Origin: an uncultured virus (IMG/VR IMGVR_UViG_3300025660_000004)
Taxonomy: Duplodnaviria > Heunggongvirae > Uroviricota > Caudoviricetes
DNA: 64,000 nt
Direction: 5' to 3' (one strand)
IMG/VR virus record: IMGVR_UViG_3300025660_000004
Shown here: piece by piece, positions 35,253-59,035 of the stretch
How the letters are laid out: each line of letters opens with the position of its first letter
Position numbering within the stretch: position 1 is the first letter of the stretch
The notes under the pieces: model-generated
Seen by the model: the letters and a program-made list of their open reading frames with translations, nothing else
Database searches by the model: none
What the model was told of the DNA's origin: nothing
Position numbers and translations under genes: made by a program

Positions 35253-35666
35253 TCAGAGGAGCTTCAGATGGCCCGTGATGGGGTTGATGCTCTCGGCCTC
35301 GGCCGGGCCGATGGCGATGGCGGTCCGGGTCTTGACGCCCTTGAACACCGTCTTGCCGACATCCTCGACCAGGGCACAGGGGAGACCCGCCAGGGTGGCC
35401 TTGTTGAACAGGGCCATCAGCTCCTCTTCGGAGCCGACCTGGACGACGACCTTCGTGAAGATCCCCCCGACCCACTCGGCCATCGCCGGGGTCAGAGGGA
35501 CATCGAGCCAGTGCTCGTCCGGGATCTTGCCCTCAGGGTCCTCTGATGTCTGCACGGAGCATCGGGTGAAGAACACCTTCATGGAGGCGTGTGCCCCCTG
35601 CGCGATCATCTTCCCCGGCTCCATGCCGATGTCGGTTCGGATGACGATGATCTGCTTGGTGTTCAT
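35253..35666 (-). CDS. pth2: peptidyl-tRNA hydrolase type 2
   Basis: KQIIVIRTD..GKMIAQGAHAS, KVVV, D.G.T.F, TAIAIGP, ITGHLKLL. Confidence 0.92.
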   Translation of the reverse strand: MNTKQIIVIRTDIGMEPGKMIAQGAHASMKVFFTRCSVQTSEDPEGKIPDEHWLDVPLTPAMAEWVGGIFTKVVVQVGSEEELMALFNKATLAGLPCALVEDVGKTVFKGVKTRTAIAIGPAEAESINPITGHLKLL

Positions 35667-35908
35667 CGGACCAGCTCTCCAACGAGCAGCAGCTCGTAGT
35701 TCCAGTAGGGGGCCACCGTCTTCGTACCGTGCCGGACCCACACGAGGATGTGGTTTTCTTCAGAGGCGGTCGTCTCCAGCCCGATGATGCGGCCCGTGGC
35801 TCCGTCCTTCCGGGCGTCCATGTGCTCCGGGCCACACAGCATCCCCTTGGTCGAAGCGATGTGGGTGACGCGGACGATGTTGCCGACCGTCACCTCGTCA
35901 GACCGCAA
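35663..35908 (-). CDS. hypothetical protein
   Basis: 81-aa ORF coupled in operon. Confidence 0.5.
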   Translation of the reverse strand: MRSDEVTVGNIVRVTHIASTKGMLCGPEHMDARKDGATGRIIGLETTASEENHILVWVRHGTKTVAPYWNYELLLVGELVR

Positions 35909-36401
35909 ACTGCTCCTCCAGCATCTCGGCCAGCGTGCAGAGGGTTCGGGTCGTCACCGTCTCGCGGGCCTCGTTGCGGTCCAGCAAGTCGAGTTCGATC
36001 CGGCCACCCACGGAGAAGGGGCCGACGACGACGTTGAAGTAGGCGTGGGCCTCCGTGATGCCTGCCTCCGGCCAGGGCTCTGCGTAGCCCGTGACCGCGA
36101 TGACGCACTCGGCGTTCATGCGGTTCTGCGCACCGAGGCACATCTGGAGGGCGATCTCGTCGGAGACGCAGTTGCACGCGGCTGCCTGCTCGCGGTTCAC
36201 ACCGAGCAGCTCGACCTTCTGGTCGATGTTGTAGGCCACGATGCCACCCTGGAGGTACTTCGACGAGCCCGGCGTGTCGGCGATGGCGGCCGAGATCATC
36301 CCGGCGGTCAGGCTCTCGGCCGTTGCCACCCGGAAGCCCCGCGCGATGGCGATCCGGTGGATGGTGTTCAGGGCTCCGCGACGGTCTTGCGTGTTGCTCA
36401 T
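35898..36401 (-). CDS. cinA: CinA C-terminal domain protein (PncC-like NMN deamidase)
   Basis: ATAESLTAG, PGSS.Y..GGIVAY, K.ELLGV, IAVTGYA. Confidence 0.85.
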   Translation of the reverse strand: MSNTQDRRGALNTIHRIAIARGFRVATAESLTAGMISAAIADTPGSSKYLQGGIVAYNIDQKVELLGVNREQAAACNCVSDEIALQMCLGAQNRMNAECVIAVTGYAEPWPEAGITEAHAYFNVVVGPFSVGGRIELDLLDRNEARETVTTRTLCTLAEMLEEQFAV

Positions 36402-36601
36402 GCGACCCTGCTCCGGGCCTGGCCCGATGGTGTGAAGAACCACTCGTAGCGACCGACGATGTGGGCCTCGACCTCGGCGTGCAGCCGACCTTCGAGGACA
36501 GCATCGCCGTTGATTTCGAGGACGTAGTTGAGCTGCTGACGCTCTGCCGCGTCCAGACCGGGCTGCGTCAGCAGCTTCACCACCATGTCGTGCAGTGTCA
36601 T
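36398..36601 (-). CDS. hypothetical protein
   Basis: AGGAG RBS; ATGA coupling. Confidence 0.55.
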   Translation of the reverse strand: MTLHDMVVKLLTQPGLDAAERQQLNYVLEINGDAVLEGRLHAEVEAHIVGRYEWFFTPSGQARSRVA

Positions 36602-36608
36602 GGCTCTC

Positions 36609-36971
36609 CTACCCCGCCGGGTCAGCGATGAGGCTCCCCAAGCCCGTCTCTGGCAAGACCACCACGTTGCACCCCTCGTTCCTCAAGACCCCTGCCGCCG
36701 CCCGACGCAGATGATCCGTGTCGTCCACGATAGTCATCTTGTCGGGATGCCAGCCGTAGTCATCCATCCGGTCAAGGATGCTGGACCCCTTGCACCACTT
36801 CTCATCAGCGGCAGCGAGCAGGCCGGGGAACTTCCCCCGGATCTCGGAGCCGGTGCTGCCAGACCAGATGATCACCTTCACGTCCGGCTGCTCTTTGAGC
36901 TTCCGAACGAAGGCAACCGGGTCGTCAAGGGTGGTCAGGGTGCCCCTGAAGTCGAGAAGGATGAGGTGCAT
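36609..36971 (-). CDS. HAD-like protein
   Basis: LLDFRGTL, IIWSG, IVDD. Confidence 0.55.
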   Translation of the reverse strand: MHLILLDFRGTLTTLDDPVAFVRKLKEQPDVKVIIWSGSTGSEIRGKFPGLLAAADEKWCKGSSILDRMDDYGWHPDKMTIVDDTDHLRRAAAGVLRNEGCNVVVLPETGLGSLIADPAG

Positions 36972-36976
36972 GGTTC

Positions 36977-37522: not shown

Positions 37523-37529
37523 CCCCTCA

Positions 37530-37557
37530 ACTACGGAGCAGGCTCCTCTTCTGAGCC
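37530..37557 (-). promoter_or_regulatory. phage promoter motif
   Basis: GGCTCAGA-N14-CGTAGT. Confidence 0.75.
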
Positions 37558-39576: not shown

Positions 39577-39734
39577 CCCGTCAGGCGACCATGGGGGACT
39601 GTAAACCCCCCGAACGGTAGCTGTACGTCAAGTCTTCGTGCGTGGCGGGTGGAGTCGGCCTTTGGTGGTCGGACCCCGTTCTCGTCTGCGTAGTGGAGCG
39701 GGAGATCGGCCGTCGTCGAGGAGACTGAGCCCCC

Positions 39735-39807
39735 TGGCGTGTAGCTCAACTGGCTAGAGCGCCGAGAACAAACCTTGGGTGTGTGGGTTCGAGTCCCACC
39801 TTGCCGA
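39735..39807 (+). tRNA. atypical tRNA (nominal anticodon CAA, loop AACAAAC lacking U33)
   Basis: TAGCTCAACTGGCTAGAGC D-arm; GTGGG-TTCGAGT-CCCAC T-arm; imperfect acceptor stem; no CCA. Confidence 0.6.
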
Positions 39808-39813
39808 TAAAGG

Positions 39814-39842
39814 GGGCTCAGTCTCCATCCCTCGCCCGTAGT
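39814..39842 (+). promoter_or_regulatory. phage promoter motif
   Basis: GGGCTCAGT-N14-CGTAGT. Confidence 0.72.
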
Positions 39843-39871: not shown

Positions 39872-40561
39872 ATGAGCGAGCCCACCCCCCTGACCGACAT
39901 CGAGAAGCAAGTACAGGCACGCCTGTGCAGCCGCCGCAGCCGTGGCTACGGGGGCAGGCCCTCCCACATGCAGCGAGCCGACGCCAGCACGCTCGGCTAC
40001 CGCTTCGCGGACGCCCACCGGGGCGGCCCCATCTACTCGCCCTTCGGCGGGTTCGATGTCGACCAGCAGGTCGAGTGGGCCATGCGGGTCCTCAACTACC
40101 TCACCGAGCAGCACATCACCGTGCCCGGCCACCCCACCACCCCTTGCGGCTACGACTCCAAGTGGGCCGACGCCAAGGCCCGCATCGAGGCTCTGTACGC
40201 CGAGCAGTTCGAGGCTGCCCGCACCGAACTCCAGGAGGAGTACGACGCTGACCCCAAGGGCTTCCGTGGATGGAACGAAGATGCCACCGTCGAGGATGGC
40301 AAGGTCACGAACCCGTGGGCCACGACCTTCACCGCCGCTGCCGACTGGTTCCTGGCGAACATGACGCAGTACACGGTGTTCACCGTCTGGCAGGCCTGCT
40401 TCGACGCTGCCGAAGAGTGCGTCCGCGAGAACCTCGGCCTCTGGGCCGAAGGCGGCACCGACTCCAACCCGCAGCAGGAGGCCGCTGATACCTTCGAGGC
40501 GTCGATGCGGAACCTCTCCGAGTACATCGACGCCTGCGTCAAGGAGGCCGCTGCCGCGTGA
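39872..40561 (+). CDS. hypothetical protein
   Basis: GGAG RBS; 229 aa. Confidence 0.7.
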   Translation: MSEPTPLTDIEKQVQARLCSRRSRGYGGRPSHMQRADASTLGYRFADAHRGGPIYSPFGGFDVDQQVEWAMRVLNYLTEQHITVPGHPTTPCGYDSKWADAKARIEALYAEQFEAARTELQEEYDADPKGFRGWNEDATVEDGKVTNPWATTFTAAADWFLANMTQYTVFTVWQACFDAAEECVRENLGLWAEGGTDSNPQQEAADTFEASMRNLSEYIDACVKEAAAA

Positions 40562-41064
40562 AGGTCGTCTTCCTCGACTTCGATGGAGTCATCAACCGCA
40601 ACAGCGGTCGGTGGCTCGTTGAGCTTGTGGAGCGGCTGAACCGCATCACCGACCAGACCGGAGCCAAGATCGTCGTCCACTCATCGTGGCGGGCCGACCG
40701 TTCCGTGGAGGAGCTACGCCGGGTCCTGACCACCTACCACTACGGCCAACCCGTGACCGGCGAGGTCTACGACGCCACCCCCTTCCCCGTCCACAGCATG
40801 ACGCCTGCGGGCATCTGGGTGGACGACGGCGGGTGGGCCGACTTCAAGGGAGACATCGAGAGCAACGACGAGCGGTGCATCTCCATCCAGCGGTGGCTCG
40901 ACGCCCATCCCGGCCTTGTGACGAAGTACGTGATTCTTGATGACTCCCCGGACCTGGGCCACTTCGTCGGCACCCCGGCCTACATCCAGACCATCCAGAA
41001 CGTCGGCCTGACCGACAGCCACGTCATGCGGGCCGTCTACCACCTCAACGGAGTGACCTGGTGA
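40558..41064 (+). CDS. HAD-domain protein (Swiss Army Knife RNA-repair HAD-like)
   Basis: VFLDFDGVI, IVVHSSWR, YVILDD, GLT. Confidence 0.8.
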   Translation: MKVVFLDFDGVINRNSGRWLVELVERLNRITDQTGAKIVVHSSWRADRSVEELRRVLTTYHYGQPVTGEVYDATPFPVHSMTPAGIWVDDGGWADFKGDIESNDERCISIQRWLDAHPGLVTKYVILDDSPDLGHFVGTPAYIQTIQNVGLTDSHVMRAVYHLNGVTW

Positions 41065-41504
41065 CCTGGTTCGCCCGCCTGAAGGCCCTCGTCACCGGCT
41101 GGCTCCACACGCCAGAAGGCGATGACCCCTTCGCGGAGCTGGAGGCCGCTGGCTTCCAGCGCGTCTACCTCATGGGCAAGGACGGGCAGCACTACGTCGC
41201 CTCCGACCTGGTCGGCCTGTGGGTCGAGGACCACGGCCGCTGCCTGCGGTTCAAGGCCAGCGTCTACGACCCGGAAGCCTGGCCCGTGCTGAAGAATCCG
41301 CTGTTCGGCAGCACGATCCGACCGGGCGAGCTGATCCGCCAGTACGTCGCCGACCCCCACCAGTGCTGGTGGAGCGAGGACACCCTGGTCCTGCACCCCT
41401 GCTCGCCAGCACAGCTCCTTGAGCGGCTGGTCGAGGCACCGGGGGAGTGGGAAGTTGCGGCCCGCCACCTGGGCGTTGGCACGCTCCAGTGGTGGGCTCG
41501 CTGA
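41061..41504 (+). CDS. hypothetical protein
   Basis: GTGA-coupled 147-aa ORF. Confidence 0.6.
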   Translation: MTWFARLKALVTGWLHTPEGDDPFAELEAAGFQRVYLMGKDGQHYVASDLVGLWVEDHGRCLRFKASVYDPEAWPVLKNPLFGSTIRPGELIRQYVADPHQCWWSEDTLVLHPCSPAQLLERLVEAPGEWEVAARHLGVGTLQWWAR

Positions 41505-41508
41505 TAGG

Positions 41509-41704
41509 TACACGCGGGAGGACTCGAACCTCCACCCTTCACGCCTCACGGGCATCCGCAGTCTTCCAGGGAGCGACCCCTTCCAGCCTGCTTGAACCCG
41601 AGGTCTGACACCGCACAGTGGAGGCCGAGGGTGGAACCCCCACACGGCCTGTTGCGCTTGGTCTTGCCTGGACGTGACGCTCTACCACTTGGAGCTACAC
41701 GCGC
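41509..41704 (-). ncRNA. tRNA-scaffold RNA with ~130-nt insert replacing the anticodon loop
   Basis: Acceptor GCGCGTG/CGCGTGT, D-arm GCTC..GAGC, TCACG/CGTGA stem, GGAGG-TTCGAGT-CCTCC T-arm. Confidence 0.7.
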
Positions 41705-41710
41705 AAAAGA

Positions 41711-41911
41711 TACGCTGGGGAGGACTCGAACCTCCGACCCCCAACGGTGGCCCCGGTGCTTGGATGATTGAGGAGCGACCCCGTCCGCACACCTTCGGGT
41801 TTCCCCTTCGTGACCAGCCCACTCGCAGGGGGTGACGCCCCCCATCTGCGACCGAACTGGTCAGTCCGGTTTCACCACCCCTGGCGCTCTAACCAACTGA
41901 GCTACCAGCGC
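41711..41911 (-). ncRNA. tRNA-scaffold RNA with ~135-nt insert replacing the anticodon loop
   Basis: Acceptor GCGCTGG/CCAGCGT, TAGCTCAGTTGGTTAGAGC, GGAGG-TTCGAGT-CCTCC. Confidence 0.7.
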
Positions 41912-41916
41912 ATAGG

Positions 41917-41990
41917 CGCGAGGGGTGGGATTTGAACCCACGGCCGACCGGATTTAGAGTCCGGCTGCTGAGCCACTCAGCTTCCCTCGC
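41917..41990 (-). tRNA. amber suppressor tRNA (CUA)
   Basis: Cloverleaf; anticodon arm GCCGGA-CTCTAAA-TCCGGT; T-loop TTCAAAT. Confidence 0.8.
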
Positions 41991-41991
41991 A

Positions 41992-42076
41992 TGGCGCACC
42001 GAGAAGGGATTGAACCTCCGGCCTCCCGACTTGACCCGAAGGCCTATCGGTCGCTCTACCACTGAGCTATCGGTGC
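41992..42076 (-). ncRNA. anticodon-less tRNA-like RNA (UUCG hairpin arm), CCA end
   Basis: GCACCGA/TCGGTGC-GCCA; arm contains GGCC-TTCG-GGTC. Confidence 0.8.
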
Positions 42077-42077
42077 A

Positions 42078-42163
42078 TGGTGCAGGAGGGAGGACTTGAA
42101 CCTCCGACCGTCCGAACGAGCCCGAAGGCTGATCGGCAGCTCTACCAACTGAGCTACTCCTGC
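42078..42163 (-). ncRNA. anticodon-less tRNA-like RNA (UUCG hairpin arm), CCA end
   Basis: GCAGGAG/CTCCTGC-ACCA; arm contains AGCC-TTCG-GGCT. Confidence 0.8.
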
Positions 42164-42164
42164 G

Positions 42165-42250
42165 TGGTGCCGAGGGAAGGGGTTGAACCTCCGACCCCCT
42201 GTCGTCACCCCGAAGGGGCGACAGGCGCTCTACCACTGAGCTACCTCGGC
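42165..42250 (-). ncRNA. anticodon-less tRNA-like RNA (UUCG hairpin arm), CCA end
   Basis: GCCGAGG/CCTCGGC-ACCA; arm CCTGTCG-CCCC-TTCG-GGGTGA-CGACAGG. Confidence 0.8.
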
Positions 42251-42251
42251 A

Positions 42252-42328
42252 TGGTGCGGGGACCGGGAGTTGAACACCGGGCCTACGGCTGGCGAGCCAG
42301 CCGTCGCTCTGCACTGAGCTATCCCCGC
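42252..42328 (-). ncRNA. anticodon-less tRNA-like RNA (closed hairpin arm), CCA end
   Basis: GCGGGGA/TCCCCGC-ACCA; arm ACGGCTGG-CTCG-CCAGCCGT. Confidence 0.78.
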
Positions 42329-42337
42329 AAGACTTCA

Positions 42338-42640
42338 CTACGCAGCCCTCCGTTCCTCCTGCCCGAGCAGGGGCAGGTTCATGCGGCCAGCGTCCGTAGC
42401 GAACGCGGTGGCCTGGTCCTTGAGGTCCGGCTCCCGCCAGAGGATCGTTCGGCCCCCATCGGGCACCAGGTCGAGAAGCTCCCGTTCGGAGCCGACCCCG
42501 TAGACGATGACGGTGCCCCGCTGCGGGCCGTACCGGGCCGACCACTCATCCATCGCGTGAATCGCCTGGGCCATCGCCCGCCCCAACCCCACATCGGTCC
42601 GCACGACGAAGTACAACCGATTGGTTGTCTTGACGCTCAT
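42338..42640 (-). CDS. Pth2-like protein (divergent)
   Basis: LYFVVRTDVGLGRAMAQAIHA, VIVY.V.SE.EL, WREPDL..TA. Confidence 0.7.
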   Translation of the reverse strand: MSVKTTNRLYFVVRTDVGLGRAMAQAIHAMDEWSARYGPQRGTVIVYGVGSERELLDLVPDGGRTILWREPDLKDQATAFATDAGRMNLPLLGQEERRAA

Positions 42641-42681
42641 GCTGCCCTCCCCGTACACTCGTGACGCAAGCGGGAGGCTAC

Positions 42682-43386
42682 ATGAAGATCGTCCCAGGAA
42701 TGGTGTTCCACCACCTCGAAGTCCTTCACCAGGGACCGTCCGACCCGTCGCGCACGACCCGCTGGTTCTGTGGTTGCATCTGCGGAGCTGAGACTCTGGT
42801 GCGCTCTTCGGCCCTGCGGAGCGGGCACTCGCAGTCGTGCGGCTGCATGGGCAAGGCCCGCCTTGAGCGGGACAAGACCTACAACGCCTGGAGTGCCATG
42901 CGGCAGAGGTGCCGTAACCCGAACAATCCTGCGTGGCCGAACTACGGTGGCCGGGGCATCTCGGTAGCCCCGGAATGGGACGACTTCGAGACGTTTCTTC
43001 GGGAGGTTGGCCCAGCTCCGAGTCTCCAGTTCAGCCTCGACCGGAAGGACCACAACGGCAACTACGAGCCCGGCAACGTGCGATGGGCGAGTTCCCGCCA
43101 GCAAGCCCGGAACCGCCGTAGCAACTGCGTGGTGGAGTTCAACGGTGTGACACAGACCCTCGCGGCCTGGTCCGAGCAAACGGGCATCTCCCGTGCGGTG
43201 CTTCAGTGGCGGCTGAAGAACTGGGACATCCCGCGTGCTCTCACTACTCCGGTGAAGTCCAGGAGGGCTCCCCGCAGGGCGGCGGAGGACAAGGCCAAGC
43301 TCATCACTCGTGCTGAGACCGAGGTTGAGGCGGCTCGGACCGCCCTCCGGGTAGCCGAACAGCGGTTGGCCGAAGTCCGGGCCTAG
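42682..43386 (+). CDS. HNH-type homing endonuclease
   Basis: CICG..L.SG.SQSCGC, W.AM.QRC.NP, YGGRGI, SLDRKDHNGNYEPGNVRWA..QARN. Confidence 0.88.
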   Translation: MKIVPGMVFHHLEVLHQGPSDPSRTTRWFCGCICGAETLVRSSALRSGHSQSCGCMGKARLERDKTYNAWSAMRQRCRNPNNPAWPNYGGRGISVAPEWDDFETFLREVGPAPSLQFSLDRKDHNGNYEPGNVRWASSRQQARNRRSNCVVEFNGVTQTLAAWSEQTGISRAVLQWRLKNWDIPRALTTPVKSRRAPRRAAEDKAKLITRAETEVEAARTALRVAEQRLAEVRA

Positions 43387-43455
43387 CTGCGCGGCCCGGC
43401 GGCCCTCACCGATGTCGGTGCGGGTCACGAAGTAGAGGCGGTCGTCGCGGGCCAT
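43384..43455 (-). pseudogene. N-terminal fragment of a Pth2-like paralog abutting the HNH gene
   Basis: MARDDRLYFVTRTDIGEGRRAAQL matches the N-terminus of 42338..42640. Confidence 0.6.
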
Positions 43456-44186
43456 CAGCTTGCCTGCCGGAACAGGTCAGCGATGCCGTCCGTGGGTCGG
43501 GTGTCTTCGGCCTCCTGGGCCTCCTCCAGCTCGCGCTTCGCAGCCCACCACGCCTCGTTCGCCACCCGGACTCTGGCAGCGGAGGCGTCGTAGTCCGCCT
43601 GCCTCCGCTCGACCGTCTTCTGGGCCGCACGGAGCGCGGAGGAGGCAATCCCGCAGCGACGGGTCTGCTCGTCGAACTCGCCCTTGAGCTTCGCGATCTC
43701 GGACCGCTTCTGGTCGAGCGCGACGAGGCCAGCGATGCCCTTGTCCTGGATGTAGGAGAGGCGCAGGTTGCCGCTCTTCAGCCACGCCTGGGCGATGGCC
43801 TCGGAGTGCTTCTGCTCGCCTGCGGGGAGGTGGGGACGGATGTACCCGCCGATGACCGTGAAGTCGGCGTCGGGGGTCTTGTGGGGGTTCCGCTTCGACT
43901 CGCACTGCTCGTAGGTCTTCCCGTTGAGAAGGGCCGCCGCGAGATGCGCGTGCCGCCGTTCGTTTCGGGAGTCCTCGGCCTGGTCGAGGAGGTCGATGCC
44001 CGCCGTGTGGCGGCACCAGCCCTGAGCGATGAGACGCTCGGCCTTGACCTTGTTGCTGTCGCGGAGTTCGCGGCCGTCCTTGCGGAGCTTGCGGCCGGAG
44101 ATGATGAGGCGAGACGCCTCGTGACGCTGGGCCGCCGTGAGGCGGCTGTTGACGTTGATCTGTGAGCTGAGGGCGCTGTGAATCAT
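43455..44186 (-). CDS. hypothetical protein with coiled-coil C-terminus
   Basis: GGAG RBS; RHAHLAAALLNGKTYEQCE. Confidence 0.7.
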   Translation of the reverse strand: MIHSALSSQINVNSRLTAAQRHEASRLIISGRKLRKDGRELRDSNKVKAERLIAQGWCRHTAGIDLLDQAEDSRNERRHAHLAAALLNGKTYEQCESKRNPHKTPDADFTVIGGYIRPHLPAGEQKHSEAIAQAWLKSGNLRLSYIQDKGIAGLVALDQKRSEIAKLKGEFDEQTRRCGIASSALRAAQKTVERRQADYDASAARVRVANEAWWAAKRELEEAQEAEDTRPTDGIADLFRQAS

Positions 44187-44308
44187 GGGGTTCTCCCGGT
44201 GTTGTGGTTTCGCGCATCGTCAAGGACGGAAGCGAATCCACAGGGAGGACCCCTAGAGGCCTGTACCTACGTGAAGGTGGTCGCGGCGGTGTAGCTCATC
44301 ATGTCTCC

Positions 44309-44336
44309 ATCCTAATGACCCCGGAGGGTCTGTCAA
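44309..44336 (-). promoter_or_regulatory. possible sigma70-type promoter
   Basis: TTGACA-N16-TAGGAT. Confidence 0.4.
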
Positions 44337-44353
44337 CAGTGTTTCTGCTTGTC

Positions 44354-44382
44354 ACTACTCGGGGGCGATCACTTCTGAGCCC
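44354..44382 (-). promoter_or_regulatory. phage promoter motif
   Basis: GGGCTCAGA-N14-AGTAGT. Confidence 0.75.
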
Positions 44383-44524
44383 CCGTGGTGGTTTTCCTAG
44401 AGCAAGCCCGTCTTGACGCCACTCAGGATCTTCGCCAGGGCGGACAGGTAGAGCCTGTCGGCCATGTTCGAGCCAGCCGATGAGGATGCCTCCAGTGGGT
44501 GCCCCGGCATGGGGCTGTGGTGGG

Positions 44525-44552
44525 ACTACGGGGCGGGGTGGTGGACTGAGCC
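44525..44552 (-). promoter_or_regulatory. phage promoter motif
   Basis: GGCTCAGT-N14-CGTAGT. Confidence 0.7.
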
Positions 44553-44560
44553 GTTGAAGT

Positions 44561-44637
44561 TGGTGCTCTCGGCGGGACTCGAACCCGCGACCTACGGATT
44601 TAGAGTCCGTTGCATCTACCAACTGAGCTACGAGAGC
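44561..44637 (-). tRNA. amber suppressor tRNA (CUA) with encoded CCA
   Basis: GCTCTCG/CGAGAGC-ACCA; ACGGA-CTCTAAA-TCCGT; GCGGG-TTCGAGT-CCCGC. Confidence 0.9.
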
Positions 44638-44656
44638 GTGGGGTCATCTATTGCGG

Positions 44657-45346
44657 TCAGGCTTCGGCGTTCGCGGTGATCTCCGCGTCGATCTCGGCCT
44701 GGTTGGCGATGTAGTAGGAGCGGGCTGCTTCCAGGGCGGGGATGCTGATGGCAGGGAACGCGGCCTTCGCGTCGATCCACCAGATGAGGATGCTGTGGTA
44801 GCCGTCCTTGAGCACCACCGGCTTGACGGTCCGCTGGAGCATGAACTCCACGATGGTCCGCACGGTGATTCGGGTGCCGCCGAGCCGGGCCGACCCGCCG
44901 CAGACGCCTTCGGTCTTCACGACCGACGCGACGTGGAAGGGTCGAAGGCAGCTCTCCGGGACGCCCCGCTGGATGCGGTGGGAGCAGAGATCGAGGATGG
45001 TGAAGTTCTGCCAGGCTTCCGGGTCCCAGCCGTTCGGAGCCGCCTTGTCCCTCAACTGCTGATCGGCCTGCGTGAAGTGCTCCCACATGGGGATGTCGTA
45101 GGTCTTGTGCTCCTTGTAGGGGGAGAGCACGTACTCGGGGTCGTAGTCGCCGTCGTCGGGGTCGCCGCATCCCTGCCCCTCGTGGCCGATGACGTAGCAG
45201 GTCACCTGGCCTTCGATGCCGGGCATGAAGTAATCGAACTGGTCCGCGTCCTCGTGGCCCGTCAACGCCTCCGTCAGCGGAAGGGTCATCCCGAGCTTCG
45301 TGCCCAGGGGGATCTTGTGTGTCATCAGTCGCGGGTCAGCAGTCAT
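44657..45346 (-). CDS. DUF433-domain protein
   Basis: GVCGGSARLGGTRITV..FP.IS..ALEAARSYY. Confidence 0.7.
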   Translation of the reverse strand: MTADPRLMTHKIPLGTKLGMTLPLTEALTGHEDADQFDYFMPGIEGQVTCYVIGHEGQGCGDPDDGDYDPEYVLSPYKEHKTYDIPMWEHFTQADQQLRDKAAPNGWDPEAWQNFTILDLCSHRIQRGVPESCLRPFHVASVVKTEGVCGGSARLGGTRITVRTIVEFMLQRTVKPVVLKDGYHSILIWWIDAKAAFPAISIPALEAARSYYIANQAEIDAEITANAEA

Positions 45347-45665: not shown

Positions 45666-46037
45666 ATGGACAAGGGAACCAGTTATGTAGCCATCTTCCT
45701 GCTCGCGGCCTTCGTGGTCGGAGCCTGGGTGTACGGCACCGAGATGAGGTGGGCCTGGCAGCGAGCCGAGAGCATGGACCGCTCGGCCCTCTCGCGGGAC
45801 ATCGACGACAAGATGGCCCGGCACTCCCGGACCACGTCGATGGACCTGTACGGCCGATGGGCCGTCACCCTCCAGCCCCTCAAGGGCGGGATGGAGACCG
45901 GCGTGGTCCAGGCCTGGCTCGATGGCCCCTGCTACGCCTACGTCAGCAACGAGAGAGGGCTGTCCAGCCACCCCGTCGAGTGCCCCGCCTGGCTCCTACA
46001 CGACCCCCGCTACCTGCCGTCCGGTGGCTCCAGGTGA
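45666..46037 (+). CDS. hypothetical membrane-anchored protein
   Basis: AGGAG RBS; N-terminal hydrophobic helix. Confidence 0.65.
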   Translation: MDKGTSYVAIFLLAAFVVGAWVYGTEMRWAWQRAESMDRSALSRDIDDKMARHSRTTSMDLYGRWAVTLQPLKGGMETGVVQAWLDGPCYAYVSNERGLSSHPVECPAWLLHDPRYLPSGGSR

Positions 46038-46483
46038 ACTCGATCGCTCTGGTCCACCCAGCCCACCTGGGCCTTGATCCCCACACCCCGGACGGCCTCG
46101 ACGCGACCTCGCAGGAGGTCGTTGCTGGCTGACGGGGTGACCCCGCTCGCTGTGCTGATGGTGACGTGCGGTACCCGGCCCGGAGTCACCCGGAACTTCG
46201 TGGGAACCTCGACCACCACAGCCTGCGCACGGTCGTCCTGTGCGTGCCCTACGACCTTCATGGTGACCGTCTTGCCCCAGGGCAGGTCCGGTCGCTCCCG
46301 GCTGTCGTGGAAGTGCCAGAGCGTCAGGTGATGGACCCACACGGTCGGGTGGACCGGCGGGAAGTAGGCCAGCAGTTTCTTCCCGGCCATCTTCGGCAGG
46401 AACCACCCGACGTAGATCACGCCGTCGTCCGGCTGGAGAGCCGCCCGGAGGTACCGTGCTGCGAGTCGCCCGACCGGGTCCAT
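46010..46483 (-). CDS. 2H phosphoesterase-like protein (tRNA-ligase phosphodiesterase-like)
   Basis: Two HxT motifs, HHLTL and PHVTIS; GGGAGG RBS. Confidence 0.7.
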   Translation of the reverse strand: MDPVGRLAARYLRAALQPDDGVIYVGWFLPKMAGKKLLAYFPPVHPTVWVHHLTLWHFHDSRERPDLPWGKTVTMKVVGHAQDDRAQAVVVEVPTKFRVTPGRVPHVTISTASGVTPSASNDLLRGRVEAVRGVGIKAQVGWVDQSDRVHLEPPDGR

Positions 46484-46494
46484 GGGTCCTCCCG

Positions 46495-47106
46495 CTACGG
46501 GGTTGTCGAGATCCATCCGAGCAGCTCGCCCACCTTGACGACGGCGGCGACACCACCCGCAAGGGCGAACAGACCACCCACGAGGTAGGCCAGGCCGACC
46601 CAGCCCCGCTTCATCCACTTGACGCCTTCACCGGCCTCCAGCAGGGGCTTGATGGCGAGGGCCTGGTCGTCGATCAGTTTCTTGTTCGCTGCCGTGGCAT
46701 CGGCCAGTTCGGTCTTGCACTCCACGAACTTCGCGTCGATGACCCCCACGAGGTCGTCCCGCAGTTCCTGGACCCCGCTCGTCAGACCACCAGCGGCTCC
46801 GGTCTTTGCGGCGTCGATGTCGCTCCCCACCTGCCGGAGCCGCTCGGAGACACGGACACCTGCCGCACGGTTCTCAACGATCCGTGCGTTGCAGGCGATC
46901 TGGCATTCGTTGATTCGGTTGCTTGTGGCGTCCAGCCGCATGTTCACGCCGGTCTTGTGCCCAGCGAAGTCGATCTCCATCTGCCGAAGCAGATCTGTCA
47001 ACCGCCCGACCTGATGCGTGAGCCCATCATCCTGTGGGCGGAAGATCTCCGGCAACCGGCTCGCCAACATCTGGTCGAGCAAGTCCCTGCGCGGATCGTT
47101 AGACAT
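46495..47106 (-). CDS. coiled-coil protein with C-terminal transmembrane segment
   Basis: Heptad pattern; GLAYLVGGLFALAGGVAAVV. Confidence 0.6.
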   Translation of the reverse strand: MSNDPRRDLLDQMLASRLPEIFRPQDDGLTHQVGRLTDLLRQMEIDFAGHKTGVNMRLDATSNRINECQIACNARIVENRAAGVRVSERLRQVGSDIDAAKTGAAGGLTSGVQELRDDLVGVIDAKFVECKTELADATAANKKLIDDQALAIKPLLEAGEGVKWMKRGWVGLAYLVGGLFALAGGVAAVVKVGELLGWISTTP

Positions 47107-54121: not shown

Positions 54122-54130
54122 TTGAAGACC

Positions 54131-55015
54131 ATGCCCACCCCCGACATCAAGCTCGACATCAAGGCCCTGAAAGCCGCCGTCGAGGCAGCCCTCGGTCACC
54201 CGATCTATCAGGGTGACTCGCAGGGCTACAAGAGCTTCAGTCACGGGATGGCCGTGGTCCGCATCTACGGGAACACCTGGAACTTCAACGGAGTCCTCAA
54301 CTTCCGCTGCGAAGGCTCCGGCCACCCGGTCGGGCAGACCCCGGACGAAGTCCTCATCCCCATGGACATCCCGCACTGGTTCGACCTCGTGGTCGGGCAG
54401 ATTGTCGAAGTCCTCTCCACCGGACGCACCGTCGAAGTCGGCAAGGGCATCGGACAGCGGGGCTGGATCTTCGAGGTCCGCGACCAGTACGTCTCCGAAC
54501 CGTGGGACGATCTGGTCTTGCAGATTCGTGGCCAGGCCGACCGCACCCGCACGGAGCCGTGGGATCTCAACCCCGACTACCAGCGTGGGGCCGTCTGGAC
54601 GAAGCGCCAGCAGGAGCGGTACATCGGCCACATCCTGTCCGGCGGAACCTCCCCCCTCATCTACTGCCAGCGGTACGACCGCAACACCAACGCCCCCAAG
54701 GGCACCGACTACATGCACCTCCCCATCGAAGTCATCGACGGGCAGCAGCGGCTCCGGGCCGTCTGTGCCTTCATCGACGGTGACATCGGCGGGCAGGTCT
54801 TCCATGACCGGGAGTGGCACACCTACTTCTACGCCGACATGGACGAGGTCGAGCGGCGGTTGGGGAGGATGAGCGAGCAGGTCGTCTACGTCGATATGTC
54901 CCGGCAGGACCGGCTCCGCTTCTACCACCGGCTCAACGGAGGCACGGCCCACACCGAAGAGGAGCTGGCCCGTGTCGCCCAGATGATCATCGACGAGTTC
55001 GGGGAGGGCGAGTAG
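54131..55015 (+). CDS. DUF262 (ParB/Srx-fold, GmrS-like) domain protein
   Basis: PDYQRGAVW, VIDGQQRL, FYHRLNGG. Confidence 0.85.
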   Translation: MPTPDIKLDIKALKAAVEAALGHPIYQGDSQGYKSFSHGMAVVRIYGNTWNFNGVLNFRCEGSGHPVGQTPDEVLIPMDIPHWFDLVVGQIVEVLSTGRTVEVGKGIGQRGWIFEVRDQYVSEPWDDLVLQIRGQADRTRTEPWDLNPDYQRGAVWTKRQQERYIGHILSGGTSPLIYCQRYDRNTNAPKGTDYMHLPIEVIDGQQRLRAVCAFIDGDIGGQVFHDREWHTYFYADMDEVERRLGRMSEQVVYVDMSRQDRLRFYHRLNGGTAHTEEELARVAQMIIDEFGEGE

Positions 55016-55582
55016 ATGCCCCTCGACCCGTCCTTCTGGGGGGCCGACCCCACCAAGCTGCTCAAGGACCGCAGGCACGGCCACCTCTACCTCGACGTGG
55101 TGCTGTACCGCAGGATCGGCTGGCCCGAAGTCTGGACGCCCGAAGCGATCTGGCACCACCCCGACCTGCGCGACATTGCCGTGTGGTTCATCGGGCCGAA
55201 CAGCGACGGAGGCGTGTCCGGCTACCAGGCCCTTGAAGTCACGGCGAACTGGTGCGGCAAGGGGAAGCATCGAGTCGAAGGCCGCTTCTCTGGCTGGACC
55301 CTCGGCCCGGATGAGCCGGAGATGCCCTGTGGGCGCGATGCCCTCCGAAGGCGGACGACCCTCGACGTGGATGACCTCGCGTGGATGTTCGCCCACTGGA
55401 ACCCGGAGCGCCCCTACCCCCTGGACGAGTGGTGGCGGGAGAAGCAGCAGCGGGTGGCCAAGCTCGGCCTGCACGCTGATGCCGCCACCCTCATCGAAAT
55501 GGCCATCGAGGAATCAAAGGGGCTCAGAACGACGATGCCGTCCGTAGTAGAGGGGACGACGACACAGGGCGTAAGCCCCTGA
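55016..55582 (+). CDS. MPLDPSFW-tag protein
   Basis: N-terminus MPLDPSFWGADP; ATG immediately after upstream TAG. Confidence 0.7.
   Translation: MPLDPSFWGADPTKLLKDRRHGHLYLDVVLYRRIGWPEVWTPEAIWHHPDLRDIAVWFIGPNSDGGVSGYQALEVTANWCGKGKHRVEGRFSGWTLGPDEPEMPCGRDALRRRTTLDVDDLAWMFAHWNPERPYPLDEWWREKQQRVAKLGLHADAATLIEMAIEESKGLRTTMPSVVEGTTTQGVSP
55520..55548 (+). promoter_or_regulatory. phage promoter motif
   Basis: GGGCTCAGA-N14-CGTAGT. Confidence 0.75.
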
Positions 55583-55858: not shown

Positions 55859-55861
55859 TCA

Positions 55862-57260: not shown

Positions 57261-57292
57261 GGTGGACATCTCCTGTCCCATCTACCCACTGG

Positions 57293-57322
57293 GGGCTCAG
57301 ATGCACCGCCTACGCGAGTAGT
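57293..57322 (+). promoter_or_regulatory. phage promoter motif (15-nt spacer variant)
   Basis: GGGCTCAGA-N15-AGTAGT. Confidence 0.6.
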
Positions 57323-57350
57323 ATGTCCCGTCAAGCTGACTGGAGACCCT

Positions 57351-57923
57351 ATGCGACCCCGTACCGCCCACCGAATCGTCAGCCGCGTCCAGACCGGCAA
57401 GGTCAAGGCCACCTCGTACACCCGCGAGGATGTGACCAGAGCGTTCGAGACGCTCAAGGTCGATCTGCCCGATGGCCTGCTCAAGCCGTGGGACGATGCC
57501 GACGCGGAGCGTGAGCGCCTGAAGGCACAGCGAGAGGCAGACGCCCCGCTCGTCGCCGAGCGGAAGGCTGCCAAGGTGGCGAAGTTCGCTGAGAAGCAGG
57601 CCGCCAAGGACGCGAAGGCTGCCCGGAAGCAGGCGTTGGAAGCCCAGCAGCGGGCGGACTTCCTGGAGCGGTTCGGCCCCCAGGCCCAGGTCGCCGCAGC
57701 CGCCGGACGCGAGGCGTTCCAGCAGGCCGTCGAGGGGGAGATCGATGAGCTGCCCGAGAGCATCGAACTCGAAGAGGTCGTGACACCGGCTCCGGCCCCC
57801 GACATCAGCGGCATGAACCGCGACGAGCTGCGTGCCGAGTGCAAGCGACGCGGCATGAAGGGCTATTCGTCCTTGAACAAGGCCGGACTCGTCGCCAAGC
57901 TGAAGGCTGACGACGGGCTGTAG
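57351..57923 (+). CDS. protein with C-terminal Rho-N/SAP-like domain
   Basis: ISGMNRDELRAECKRRGMKGYSSLNKAGLVAKL. Confidence 0.7.
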   Translation: MRPRTAHRIVSRVQTGKVKATSYTREDVTRAFETLKVDLPDGLLKPWDDADAERERLKAQREADAPLVAERKAAKVAKFAEKQAAKDAKAARKQALEAQQRADFLERFGPQAQVAAAAGREAFQQAVEGEIDELPESIELEEVVTPAPAPDISGMNRDELRAECKRRGMKGYSSLNKAGLVAKLKADDGL

Positions 57924-58009
57924 CCCTCGTCGGAGCGGCACCATGACCTTCGATCCCACCAAGTACTCCACACCCGAGCGGGTAGCGCCCGCTCTTCGTG
58001 GAGAACAGC

Positions 58010-58357
58010 ATGGGACTCGAATCTCGTCATGGCCGCAGGCGTCGTCTCACCGAGACGATTGCCCGCCGCCGCCGCTCTGACTTCATCCACAGGTGCCTCG
58101 ACGGCGACTCGTCAGGCCACCTGTGGACGACCTCCCCCTACTACTGGGCCAAGAACAGCACCGACCCGTGCAGGTGCGCGAAGCGTCGTCATGGCGTGCC
58201 GCGTCTGTGCAAGGGGATGTGCTGCATCGGTGAACGCAGCCGCATCTACCGGCTCCGGGCACAGGCCCTCGAACTCAAACGGCTGATCCGCCGTGGTGCG
58301 GATCTGGATGGGGACGACGTGGCCTTGCTGTCGCGTGCCCTTGTGAGACCGACATGA
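58010..58357 (+). CDS. basic Cys-containing hypothetical protein
   Basis: GGAG RBS; ATGA overlap with release-factor gene. Confidence 0.6.
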   Translation: MGLESRHGRRRRLTETIARRRRSDFIHRCLDGDSSGHLWTTSPYYWAKNSTDPCRCAKRRHGVPRLCKGMCCIGERSRIYRLRAQALELKRLIRRGADLDGDDVALLSRALVRPT

Positions 58358-59035
58358 AGATCATCATCGAAATCCGTAGTGGCGAGGGCGGCAAGGACGC
58401 CAAGCTCCTCGTGCGCGATCAGGTCGCTCTCTATACGAAATTCGCTGCCCGGAGGTCACTTTGACCTCGACATCCTCACCGACCTCCCCGGTCAGGTCAC
58501 CCTGGTGGCATCGGGCAAGGGCGTCGAACGGGCCTTCCACAACGAGGCAGGAGGCCACCGATACCAGCGGGTCCCGCCGACTGAGAAGCGAGGCAGGGTT
58601 CACACCAGCACCGTCACTGTCGCGGTCCTCGCTGTCCCCGAACAGCGGGAGCTGCGCATCGACCAGAAGGACCTGGAGTGGAAGACCTGCCGGGGCTCTG
58701 GAGCTGGAGGTCAGCACCGGAACACCACCGACTCTGCCGTGCAGCTCACCCACCTCCCCACCGGGGTCAGTGTCCGCTGCGAGAGCGAGAGGAGCCAGCA
58801 CCAGAACAAGGCGTTGGCCCTCGACGTGCTGCGGGCTCGAATCGGCCAGGCTCAGGCGGCAGAGGTACGGACCGGAAGAAACGCGGCTCGGCGGCAGCAG
58901 GTCGGGAGCGGGATGCGGGCCGACAAGGTGCGGACCATCGCCATCCAGCGGGACCAGGTACATGACCACCGGACCGGACGGAGGATGTCGGCCAAGGCGT
59001 ACCTGCGAGGCTCAGTCGATGGGCTGTGGGCCTAG
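58354..59035 (+). CDS. prfA: class I peptide chain release factor homolog (RF1-type, lacking domain 1), requires +1 frameshift at 58459-58465
   Basis: Frame 0 [13 protein letters not shown]..; +1 frame [39 protein letters not shown]. Confidence 0.88.
58451..58465 (+). promoter_or_regulatory. prfB-type programmed +1 frameshift signal
   Basis: GGAGG-TCA-CTT-TGA-C (internal SD, 3-nt spacer, CUU UGA C). Confidence 0.88.

Follow-up and report, generated by a model that had tools for sequence, protein, structure and literature searches.

A marine phage region with candidate devices coupled to stop-codon decoding and accessory tRNA-shaped RNAs

The 64-kb stretch of DNA analyzed here (64,000 nucleotides; hereafter the window) is best read, with a probability of about 0.6, as a section of a huge marine phage genome that follows the standard genetic code and carries at least two separately inherited devices coupled to stop-codon decoding, together with accessory tRNA-shaped RNAs. 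Device A consists of a suppressor tRNA, a leader ending in UAG and a masking box; these elements are seen in the sequence and in relatives, and we infer the mechanism that would join them. Device B is a frameshift-gated release factor that derives from RF1 and has no domain 1. No published description of these stop-codon-gated devices was found in the literature. The original prediction of a stop-codon switch holds insofar as the UAG-gated leader is conserved and its gate tracks the anticodon, whereas the single integrated circuit that it envisaged is only partly supported.

Genetic code and authenticity of the window

The stop codons of the 86 genes in the window, called with a GC3 heuristic, are TGA in 44, TAG in 41 and TAA in one, and read-through extensions are alike for TAG- and TGA-ended genes (Mann-Whitney p = 0.80). 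A 402-kb relative that carries the device A module (G006; 361 genes) has a coding coverage of 0.898 under the standard code and 0.895 with TAG as sense. Since TAG is an ordinary stop in the window and G006 is on the standard code, there appears to be no code change. The window sequence is real, as three other seawater studies have contigs with pieces identical to it (no differing letters in the pieces listed). Positions 44061-44280, which include the gate and the start of gene X, are also represented by a 220-nt contig in an RNA library, although carry-over of DNA is possible. The window is poor in structural genes.

A putatively UAG-gated leader precedes gene X

The two CUA tRNAs of the original prediction are real. 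tRNA-CUA-1 (44561..44637, minus strand; discriminator A, CCA encoded) and tRNA-CUA-2 (41915..41990, minus strand; discriminator G) are of the amber suppressor type, are detected by ARAGORN and by Rfam (67.2 and 54 bits, respectively) and present CUA within a normal 7-nt loop. As also predicted, no ordinary sense-codon tRNA was detected by ARAGORN and Rfam in the 64-kb window; relatives have 30-37 normal tRNAs elsewhere in the genome, so this absence may be confined to the window. Ten copies of the T-arm motif GGTTCRANYC are present where 2.5 are expected, a count reached in 0 of 100 shuffles.

Downstream of tRNA-CUA-1 is a leader ORF of 11 codons (MMSYTAATTFT; 44267..44302, minus strand) that ends in UAG, the gate codon (44269-44267). 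An anti-Shine-Dalgarno box (GGGGUCCUCCC; 44243..44253, minus strand) begins 16 nt past the gate codon's first base, with its CCUCC core from +21, and forms the 5' arm of a predicted masking hairpin; the 3' arm is the Shine-Dalgarno region of gene X (GGGAGAACCCC; 44187..44197, minus strand). Gene X (43455..44186, minus strand) encodes a helical protein of 243 residues that is a conserved partner in the module, with homologues in 14 loci. Its predicted model has a pLDDT of 92.4, and a search for a specific fold match to this model found none. Any function given below to gene X, the Pth2-like protein or the tRNA mimics is putative.

The GGNCCUCC box, 15-30 nt past the gate stop, is conserved in 14 of 15 loci and base-pairs with gene X at its start codon and Shine-Dalgarno site. 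Its proline codon is the rare CCU in 14 of the 15 despite a GC3 of ~0.9, which indicates constraint at the RNA level. By a duplex-energy test the pairing is present in 14 of 15 loci, where the observed energy is matched in 0-18 of 300 shuffles, and a separate analysis found the 15th locus paired as well. In the window, the duplex has an energy of -23.7 kcal/mol, equalled in one of 300 shuffles. There is one compensatory change in the hairpin (n = 1; CGCGG:CCGTG to CGTGG:CCATG). RNAalifold on a MAFFT alignment recovered just two pairs, so the support for the hairpin is that of per-sequence folds.

If the gate is read through, the frame in the window stops at a TGA (44185-44183) that overlaps the ATG of gene X. 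Across loci this frame ends on the gene X start (ATGA or GTGA) in five, is fused in frame to X in five, ends 21-34 nt upstream of the start in three and runs past it in two. To judge from the gene layout, gene X is translationally coupled to a Pth2-like gene in relatives, its stop overlapping or abutting the Pth2-like start in 13 of 14. In the window, a gene for an HNH homing-type endonuclease (42661..43386, plus strand; phrog_374, 2.9e-60) is inserted between the two. What remains next to gene X is a stranded 24-codon N-terminal piece of an older Pth2-like copy (MARDDRLYFVTRTDIGEGRRAAQL; 43384..43455, minus strand; three-frame reading, HMM match 1.8e-6), whose start is still coupled to the gene X stop (TGATG). 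Because the intact Pth2-like gene lies beyond the insertion and has a Shine-Dalgarno site of its own, the putative gate in the window can be claimed for gene X only.

The gate codon follows the tRNA anticodon

Across relatives the gate codon, as read from the aligned loci, follows the anticodon of the tRNA. The gate is TAG with anticodon CUA in 10 of 10 high-GC, non-redundant loci having both elements (the window, L047, L048, L050, L051, L052/53, L054, L058, L059 and L067) and TAA with anticodon UUA in two of two (L055 and L061); there are no discordant loci. In 200 bootstrap trees L055 and L061 never come out as sisters, but two origins are not required by any well-supported branch, and the two loci may share one.

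In all seven loci listed from low-GC relatives, tRNA-CUA is immediately followed by the Pth2-like ORF, which opens ATG-NNN-TAG and so has the TAG within it, at codon 3. One locus (L016) has an ATG four codons past the TAG, which could bypass the gate. These arrangements support a predicted control of a Pth2-like gene by the gate in relatives.

One canonical and one divergent Pth2 protein

Of the two Pth2-like hydrolases originally proposed, one is a true Pth2 and the other has a divergent Pth2 fold. The canonical peptidyl-tRNA hydrolase (35253..35741, minus strand) is a member of the archaeal/eukaryotic-type Pth2 family (Pfam PF01981, 2.6e-28, 99 bits; NCBIfam arch_pth2, 87.7 bits against a cut-off of 82), and its start is likely the Met 25 codons into the ORF. 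The divergent protein (42338..42658, minus strand; phrog_1866, 1.5e-6; 29 homologues) probably starts at the ATG at 42640, behind its own GGGGAGGG Shine-Dalgarno site. It has no Pfam match and fails the Pfam and NCBIfam models, yet the best 12 PDB matches listed for its predicted structure (pLDDT 87.7; ranks 1-13) are all Pth2-family chains, and hhalign places its invariant Asp 89 on the Asp of the EDVG motif of true Pth2. The catalytic Lys of Pth2 is Arg in this protein, and K, Q or L in a few homologues; with this residue replaced, hydrolase activity is not assured. The protein shares fold and aligned Asp with Pth2 but belongs to a family of its own, ~30 environmental sequences tied to suppressor tRNAs.

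A frameshift gates an RF1-type release factor

The RF1-like factor that had been set against the suppressor tRNAs is also real. Its gene (58354..59035, plus strand) encodes an RF1-type release factor without domain 1, of 226 residues after a +1 shift, in which the PPT and GGQ motifs are present. The 0 frame runs for 36 codons to a TGA; shifting by +1 at CTT TGA C (58459-58465) yields a protein that aligns unbroken to RF1 across the shift site and scores 231 bits with the NCBIfam model for prfA, 151 for prfB and 89 for prfH. The shift site belongs to a cassette, GGAGG TCA CTT TGA C (58451..58465, plus strand), with a 3-nt spacer after GGAGG. Immediately upstream, a Cys-rich ORF of 119 residues (57998..58357, plus strand) has a TGA that overlaps the ATG of the release factor gene (ATGA); it has a 60% identical homologue in L001, and a profile search for its family found none.

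L001-L004 and L015 share this cassette at the same position, and 13 of 21 related release factor loci require a +1 shift. The cassette stop is UGA in the window and five others, UAA in one and UAG in six, four of which have a tRNA-CUA nearby. The gene is uninterrupted in L008 and has two in-frame TGA codons in L010-L013; L014 was not translated, and three loci are partial.

The cassette resembles the programmed frameshift of prfB (RF2) in its GGAGG, 3-nt spacer, CUU UGA C and the need for a +1 shift to make the full protein. It differs in that the window gene is RF1-type (PPT motif; 231 against 151 bits) and lacks domain 1, that its site is at codon 36, in domain 2 of RF1, whereas that of prfB is at codon 26 in domain 1, and that UGA is not the factor's own codon, relatives having UAG or UAA. 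No programmed frameshift was found in cellular prfA, as far as the consulted portion of PMC12421855 goes. The frameshift sensor of the original prediction therefore stands as a prfB-style +1 cassette gating the release factor, but with UGA as its gate it would not sense UAG decoding. PrfH (RF-H), which accompanies RtcB2 in ribosome repair, is likewise a release factor homologue without domain 1 near RNA-repair genes. We rejected this identity, given a score of 89 bits where the cut-off is 167, and the absence of RtcB near the gene in a Pfam scan of the window; the factor is far closer to RF1 and retains PxT and GGQ.

tRNA mimics and RNA-healing enzymes

At least six tRNA mimics had been proposed, and four sealed RNAs, two with inserts of ~130 nt and one within a long hairpin are present. 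In the sealed-anticodon mimics 1-4 (42252..42328, 42165..42250, 42078..42163 and 41992..42076, all minus strand), a tetraloop-capped hairpin takes the place of the anticodon loop. Mimic 1, identified by sequence and fold, has an 8-bp stem, a CUCG tetraloop and CCA (Rfam 44.3 bits). Mimics 2, 3 and 4 have UUCG caps, the last on an extension, and encoded CCA (57.1, 53.6 and 52.5 bits), with 17 nt in mimic 2 where the model has 6. Of the insert-bearing RNAs, one (41711..41911, minus strand; sequence, fold z = -3.3 and homologue alignment) has the same acceptor stem, GCGCTGG, as a short sealed mimic in L047; the other (41507..41704, minus strand) carries its insert in the anticodon region, has three G-U pairs in its acceptor stem and was aligned with three homologues. 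The last tRNA-like RNA (39720..39826, plus strand; Rfam tRNA 39.4 bits, fold z = -3.7) is inside a 16-bp stem and has D, anticodon-like and T arms with an atypical A at position 33.

Compared with canonical tRNA (Rfam RF00005), the mimics share the acceptor, D and T arms and encoded CCA (44-57 bits) but have a sealed hairpin or 130-nt insert instead of the 7-nt anticodon loop. As predicted from this form, the sealed and insert-bearing RNAs cannot decode. Between the window and L047 the three shared arms are kept while the anticodon arm is freely replaced; the L047 homologue of mimic 1, for example, keeps the acceptor and T arms with a different 8-bp sealed stem. Matches to the Y-RNA-like YrlA lie across junctions in the tandem array and are below threshold (24-27 bits against 69). 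The sealed and insert-bearing mimics are co-oriented directly behind the Pth2-like gene, and such an array follows that gene in only three of the 15 relatives with at least 1 kb of downstream sequence, which argues against the mimics as part of a circuit. They may be processing signals, decoys or ligands for acceptor-end enzymes.

The RNA-healing enzymes are present as predicted: a HAD phosphatase of the 'Swiss Army Knife' RNA-repair type (40558..41064, plus strand; Pfam HAD_SAK_2, 7e-22) and a 2H phosphoesterase (46010..46618, minus strand; Pfam tRNA_lig_CPD, 4.6e-5) with two HxT motifs (HLT and HVT). Neither ligase nor kinase was found beside them in the window. For the true Pth2, as for the repair enzymes and mimics, no tie to UAG decoding was found, and a role in ribosome rescue is conjectural.

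Discussion

The original prediction joined suppressor tRNAs, the RF1-like factor, both Pth2 proteins, mimics and repair enzymes into one circuit for tuning UAG read-through and clearing stalled ribosomes, and expected its parts to co-occur in relatives. Instead, inheritance of the release factor gene is separate from that of the tRNA/gate/Pth2-like module: G006, which has terminal repeats, carries the module without the release factor, and a 313-kb genome rated 100% complete (G008) carries the factor without the Pth2-like gene; G009 has both. A 222-kb record rated 50% complete (G004) has the factor and 38 tRNA genes, none of them CUA, in the stretches scanned. The UGA gate of the factor in the window, the scarcity of mimic arrays beside the module and the unlinked Pth2 and repair enzymes also weigh against one circuit. 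All parts do lie within 24 kb, and a UAG gate necessarily weighs suppressor against RF1, so a phage RF1 would feed in; in low-GC relatives, moreover, the factor, tRNA-CUA and a gated Pth2-like gene fall within 2-4 kb in nine of 21 release factor loci, and the six UAG cassettes, four with tRNA-CUA nearby, fit as well. On balance we consider one circuit unlikely. An anti-defence kit against tRNA-attacking host toxins, in which the Pth2 enzymes would strip blocking groups from acylated tRNAs, cut ends would be healed by the 2H and HAD enzymes, the anticodon-less mimics would soak up toxins with a preference for the acceptor end or elbow and the gate would report whether charging of tRNA still functions, is somewhat less likely still. 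Transfer RNA that GNAT toxins have acetylated is detoxified by Pth, and phage tRNAs are able to evade anticodon nucleases; these facts, and the repair domains and the free exchange of the mimics' anticodon arm between the window and L047 agree with such a kit. However, PADLOC gave no informative neighbour, no ligase was found, most relatives of the module lack mimics, and a gate that is on when the tRNA works is the reverse of a damage alarm.

A late-infection reassignment of TAG by the suppressor tRNAs, unlocking late genes with in-frame TAG outside the window as proposed for recoded gut phages, is improbable. The window has few structural genes and late genes lie outside its view, and the examined part of one preprint describes 'code-change modules' of suppressor tRNA, release factor and aaRS in recoded phages (bioRxiv 10.1101/2021.08.26.457843). 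These likewise set a suppressor tRNA near a release factor, with an in-frame stop proposed as an expression gate; yet the modules as described there pair TAG recoding with RF2, not RF1, whereas the window factor matches the suppressed codon rather than complementing it. Further, 41 of 86 window genes end in TAG, in-frame continuation past TAG is not in excess, G006 is fully covered by standard-code genes, no more than one gate was found (in the leader or at codon 3), and no aaRS was detected among 88 predicted window proteins scanned against Pfam. Most improbable is a set of unconnected leftovers, with decaying CUA tRNAs and mimics, a frameshifted pseudogene for the factor and a chance leader ORF. 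The HNH insertion and stranded gene fragment do mark a region in flux, but the conservation seen in the sequences already contradicts this: the cassette is at the same place in 12 related genes, gate and anticodon covary, sealed arms are maintained with differing stem sequences, and identical sequence recurs in several studies.

Control by a leader ORF through Shine-Dalgarno masking and translational coupling is known from ermC, secM-secA and tnaC. Device A shares with these a short upstream ORF in which ribosome position would decide the opening of a hairpin over the next ribosome-binding site. The trigger differs, being not stalling by drug, amino acid or nascent peptide but read-through of the leader stop by an adjacent, dedicated suppressor tRNA, with the gate following the anticodon. 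Hairpin gating and tRNA-CUA function are here predictions from sequence and comparison.

Under the two-device reading, a release factor that ends the leader at UAG would keep the hairpin closed and X silent. If charged tRNA-CUA wins, the ribosome would traverse the box, open the hairpin and halt on the TGA overlapping the ATG of X, so that X is translated and, in relatives, the start-coupled Pth2-like gene as well. In the window, the HNH gene would have broken this coupling, and the intact Pth2-like gene would now use its own ribosome-binding site. For device B, full-length factor would be made solely by prfB-type +1 frameshifting; a PxT-type factor should not read the cassette UGA, so autoregulation is not expected in the window, and yield should track RF2 activity rather than its own.

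Device A would thereby be a readout of the ratio of suppressor to RF1 activity. Its Pth2-like output, presumably acting on the ester bond of aminoacyl- or peptidyl-tRNA, may limit the suppressor tRNA itself in a negative feedback, or may recycle peptidyl-tRNA upon faulty UAG decoding, while device B would provide additional termination at UAG and UAA for a phage that ends about half of its genes with TAG.

Stop-codon gate and masking hairpin

As in the original prediction, both ARAGORN and Rfam place CUA in a normal anticodon loop in two tRNAs: tRNA-CUA-1 at 44637-44561(-) and tRNA-CUA-2 at 41990-41915(-). Each of these putative suppressors has a cloverleaf and a 7-nt loop (CUCUAAA) with U33 and CUA, the features expected of a suppressor tRNA. 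Loci were fetched around homologues of the Pth2-like protein encoded at 42338-42658(-), 20 from metagenomes and 3 viral. In 13 of the 23, a suppressor tRNA lies on the same strand 0.5-4.6 kb upstream of the Pth2-like homologue, with the anticodon CUA in L047, L048, L050-L054, L058, L059, L067 and L068 and UUA in L055 and L061. The remaining loci, in which no suppressor tRNA was seen, are mostly short or cut contigs.

The order of elements in the relatives is suppressor tRNA, a leader ORF of 9-13 codons, a homologue of gene X (43455-44186(-) in the window) and the Pth2-like gene. The stop codon of the leader follows the anticodon of the tRNA: it is TAG with tRNA-CUA in all 10 non-redundant loci, the window included, and TAA with tRNA-UUA in both, and no locus is discordant. 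The tree of Pth2-like proteins lacks the resolution to support independent origins of the UUA/TAA pairs.

Between 15 and 30 nt past the leader stop is a box, GGNCCUCC, kept in 14 of 15 loci, in which the codon is always CCU, otherwise a rare one. Single-sequence folds and duplex calculations pair this box with the Shine-Dalgarno site of gene X and often with its start codon too; the duplex calculation finds the pairing in 14 of the 15 loci, and a separate fold analysis finds it in L066. The leader has its own Shine-Dalgarno site and the hairpin is conserved with compensatory change, although this amounts to one clear pair only (CGCGG:CCGTG versus CGTGG:CCATG), and these are the hallmarks of a leader switch that masks a Shine-Dalgarno site. 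RNAalifold returned just 2 pairs on the MAFFT alignment A2 because MAFFT misaligns the variable spacer. The frame opened by read-through ends on the gene X start (ATGA or GTGA) in five loci, continues in frame into gene X in five, ends 21-34 nt before the start in three and after it in two. Read-through of the leader stop would open the masking hairpin, and the device would report suppressor activity against that of RF1.

The two genes of the operon are coupled: in 13 of 14 relatives, the gene X stop overlaps or abuts the start of the Pth2-like gene. Among the homologues in L047-L066, many gene X proteins have EAA at the C-terminus, where GAG GCN GCG forms the Shine-Dalgarno site of the overlapping Pth2-like start. 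Low-GC relatives that carry the release factor (RF) gene are built differently: they are without gene X, and the Pth2-like ORF directly follows tRNA-CUA and begins ATG-NNN-TAG in all seven printed cases, with a possible bypass ATG four codons after the gate TAG in L016. Therefore, both architectures point to one rule, that the Pth2-like operon is translated only on read-through of the stop codon matching the neighboring tRNA.

In the window itself, an antisense HNH gene (42661-43386(+)) separates gene X from the intact Pth2-like gene, and the coupled start after gene X opens a 24-codon N-terminal remnant of a different Pth2-like allele. The HNH gene and remnant (42661-43455) look like homing with replacement of the 5' end of the Pth2-like gene. 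The intact gene comes with a ribosome-binding site of its own. Any claim for the gate in the window is therefore limited to gene X. Structure comparison of gene X gave only generic helical-hairpin matches with Z below 10, and the ESM Atlas gave no usable match for gene X or for 39872-40561.

Pth2 proteins and RNA-repair enzymes

Two Pth2-like hydrolases were originally predicted. The one at 35253-35741(-) stands as a true Pth2, scoring 99 bits against a gathering score of 23 (PF01981), whereas the one at 42338-42658(-) has no Pfam or NCBIfam match but a Pth2-like fold. Its predicted structure matches Pth2 structures exclusively among the 12 best listed (ranks 1-13), with query-normalized TM-scores of 0.50-0.58. 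The invariant Asp 89 aligns with the EDVG aspartate of the true Pth2, and the lysine is replaced by arginine. There are 29 environmental homologues of this protein; a scan of viral contigs with a single Pth2-like sequence gave none, and an alignment query then gave 3. Many Pth2-like proteins end in AA.

The window also encodes two end-healing enzymes, a HAD_SAK_2 protein and a 2H phosphoesterase. No ligase or kinase domain of an RNA healing/sealing system was found among the 88 window proteins scanned.

tRNA look-alikes

Seven tRNA-shaped genes run head to tail between 42328 and 41507 (-). In the first four, from 42328 onward, the acceptor, D and T arms are normal and CCA is encoded, but the anticodon arm is a closed hairpin, formed either by an 8-bp stem looped with CUCG or by an extension capped by UUCG. 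These are followed by tRNA-CUA-2, with its normal loop, and by two elements (41711-41911 and 41507-41704) whose acceptor and T arms enclose ~130 nt. Thus, the canonical 7-nt anticodon loop of RF00005 is missing from six elements, of which four are capped by tetraloops and two bear inserts. Together with a tRNA-like RNA at 39720-39826, which has A33 and no proper acceptor stem and sits inside a perfect 16-bp stem (GGAGACUGAGCCCCCU / AGGGGGCUCAGUCUCC), they bear out the claim of at least six tRNA mimics. Rfam gave nothing beyond a weak tRNA match for the A33 form.

The ~130-nt inserts of the window pair, L047 (2648-2842) and L062 (1975-2185) have blocks in common, for example GGGGUCGCUCC / GGGGUAGCUCC, and match no Rfam family. 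The first insert-bearing window element folds strongly (z = -3.3), the second does not (z = 0.3). Identity of the array with YrlA/Y-RNA was rejected, as the matches are below threshold and span junctions of tandem tRNAs.

Elements of tRNA type lie directly behind the Pth2-like gene in the window, L047 (seven), L054 (a second tRNA-CUA) and L062 (one insert-bearing); no other relative in which 1 kb or more is available downstream of the gene has one there. Those of L047 are homologous one by one to the window array. Between the two arrays, the mimics retain their acceptor and T arms, but the sealed arm is swapped for different sealed stems, which argues for selection on a non-decoding shape. The exact T-arm/acceptor pattern of mimic 1 occurs 0 times in viral contigs. 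At the array place matching window mimic 4 / tRNA-CUA-2, L047 has a tRNA-like RNA (2409-2482) with CUA in a loop of 6 or 8 nt (GUUCUAAU), a candidate for either a non-canonical decoder or a further sealed form.

The prediction that no ordinary sense tRNA is present holds within the window by both ARAGORN and Rfam. However, two longer relative records hold many elsewhere, G004 with 37 plus a tmRNA and G006 with 30 tRNA-model matches, so the lack is possibly confined to the window.

The genetic code is standard

Phage suppressor tRNAs are usually read as tools for code change or codon supply. Reassignment of TAG (a code 15-like code) was considered here. Using our own GC3-based gene calls, the 86 window genes end in TGA (44), TAG (41) or TAA (1), a TAG share unusually high for DNA of 65% G+C; in G006 the share is 21%. 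TAG-ended genes continue in frame past the stop no more than TGA-ended ones do (p = 0.80). Taking TAG as sense raises the summed ORF length from 46.8 to 50.8 kb, but the gain comes only from fused neighboring genes. G006, a 402-kb record with terminal repeats that carries the module of suppressor tRNA, gate and Pth2-like gene, is covered equally under both codes (0.898 standard, 0.895 with TAG as sense), and TAG ends 75 of its 361 genes. We therefore reject recoding, TAG being a common stop with no excess continuation.

A narrower alternative, in which programmed read-through fuses in-frame neighbors separated by TAG (for example 54122-55015 + 55016-55582), is rejected likewise, as such pairs show no excess over TGA-ended genes. 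The pair just named consists of a GmrSD_N/NsnA-like ORF of 297 aa ending in TAG and an in-frame ORF of 188 aa with a coding signature; 54122-55582 may encode a two-domain nuclease in split or read-through form. In the available text of a preprint on recoded phages, TAG recoding goes with RF2 and TGA recoding with RF1 (bioRxiv 10.1101/2021.08.26.457843).

Release factor and frameshift cassette

The RF1-like factor and the frameshift sensor of the original prediction are both confirmed as sequence features. The ORF from 58354 (P0001, 58354-59035(+)) meets TGA after 36 codons, and a +1 shift at CTT TGA C yields a protein of 226 aa. The cassette at 58451-58465 (GGAGG TCA CTT TGA C) comprises a Shine-Dalgarno-like element, a 3-nt spacer and CTT followed by the stop and C, as in prfB-type +1 frameshifting, and the alignment of P0001 to RF1 chains is unbroken across the shift. 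The protein scores 231 bits with prfA, 151 with prfB and 89 with prfH. It keeps the GGQ catalytic motif (SGAGGQHRN, aligned to RF1 chains) and the PPT tripeptide, and its decoding loop aligns with RF1 vqrvp(a/v)te..gr.hts. Domain 1 is absent, so that only positions 105-331 of the 347 in the prfA model are covered and the 231 bits stand against an equivalog cut-off of 400. By the tripeptide rule, the UGA of the cassette is presumably not the protein's own codon, its motif being PxT. A PrfH / RtcB2 identity was rejected, with 89 bits against a cut-off of 167, and no RtcB is found among the 47 window proteins scanned.

A +1 shift is needed in 13 of 21 related viral loci, at UGA in L001-L004 and L015, UAA in L005, and UAG in L006, L007, L016, L017, L018 and L020. 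The RF genes of the low-GC loci L010-L013 have, instead of a frameshift, a single frame as read with two in-frame TGA codons, one of which sits where other members have the shift-site stop. The gene is uninterrupted in L008 and partial in three loci. A Cys-rich ORF of 119 aa with no known family (57998-58357) overlaps the RF start by ATGA and has a homologue of 60% identity beside the RF gene in L001.

The RF1-type factor would serve the TAG-rich stop usage, and its level would be set by RF2 activity through the UGA cassette. According to the available text of a 2025 survey, prfA of cellular genomes lacks a programmed frameshift (PMC12421855), and that of a huge-phage survey mentions RF1 and RF2 genes without a frameshift feature (PMC7162821).

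The window and its relatives

The G+C content is 63-68% throughout the window. Matches to PHROG and Pfam indicate a large phage (NAD-dependent ligase, dNMP and thymidylate kinases, HNH endonuclease and an InPase-bearing virion-type protein). No near-identical known phage was found, and the best phage matches of the ligase are ~30% identical. The viral contigs closest by RF gene are 14-222 kb and rated 3-50% complete, implying genomes of ~450-550 kb.

The region 41400-44700 is represented in marine and seawater metagenomes, a habitat reading that leaves out runs with small shares. Pieces identical to the window occur in three studies besides the probable source, with no differing letters among those listed; joints, which are short tRNA-like matches from other organisms, were left out of this contig comparison. 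One 220-nt contig, from a metatranscriptome library of the probable source study, matches 44061-44280 exactly, a stretch that includes the gate, the gene X start and the masking box between them, but it may be DNA carry-over.

Several genes share an NAD/ADP-ribose theme (25668-27233, 7908-8558, 35898-36443, 47730-48743 and 21473-23452), their products being a PARP-like protein (WGR, PARP_reg and PARP catalytic domains), a Macro-domain protein, a CinA/PncC-type NMN deamidase, a second WGR-domain protein and the NAD-dependent DNA ligase. A 1544-aa protein (29592-34226) with two glycosyltransferase family 2 regions and two SAM methyltransferase domains adjoins a peptidoglycan-binding protein (34242-35198). 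PADLOC, run on 34 window proteins, returned only weak receiver-domain and NsnA-like matches.

Discussion

The original prediction joined these parts in a single circuit for UAG decoding and ribosome rescue, expected to co-occur across relatives. In G009 (362 kb, rated 100% complete), the RF and Pth2-like genes lie within 3.5 kb of each other, but G006 has the module and no RF homologue, and in G008 (313 kb, rated 100% complete) the RF occurs with no Pth2-like gene. In G004, the RF is joined by ordinary tRNAs, a tmRNA and a Pth2-like gene at a distance, and no tRNA-CUA was found in the scanned stretches of its 222 kb. The RF gene and the module are thus inherited separately. A single circuit could exist, as the gate is acted on by the tRNA as well as by any RF1 activity, but the data do not require it.

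One way in which the parts could work together is as a self-contained homeostat for UAG decoding run by the phage, to which we give a probability of only about one in five. The private suppressor tRNA would be mainly a trans-acting inducer rather than a decoder of phage genes, with the gate codon as its sole obligatory target. The gated Pth2-like enzyme would deacylate this tRNA, or peptidyl-tRNA that comes off at slow UAG stops, and in this way hold suppression at a set point against RF1 activity, part of which the frameshift-gated phage RF1 would supply. The sealed look-alikes would be competing ligands that tune the Pth2-like enzyme. Any functions of gene X, the Pth2-like protein and the mimics are ones that we infer.

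Our literature search found no description of a Pth2-like operon gated by a suppressor tRNA, of a frameshift-gated phage RF1 or of tRNA arrays with sealed anticodons. Termination is, to our knowledge, not a step of translation that viruses are known to control. Here, standard-code phages carry a suppressor tRNA linked to one stop codon, which tracks its anticodon, and this stop either would control a conserved operon through masking of a ribosome-binding site or is codon 3 of the controlled gene. If true, this would be a natural, orthogonal tRNA/stop-codon switch by which a virus measures the balance of termination and read-through in the infected cell. The small and portable parts may serve as genetic tools. 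The gate, together with an RF1-type factor that borrows the frameshift sensor of RF2, suggests that huge phages monitor and adjust termination.
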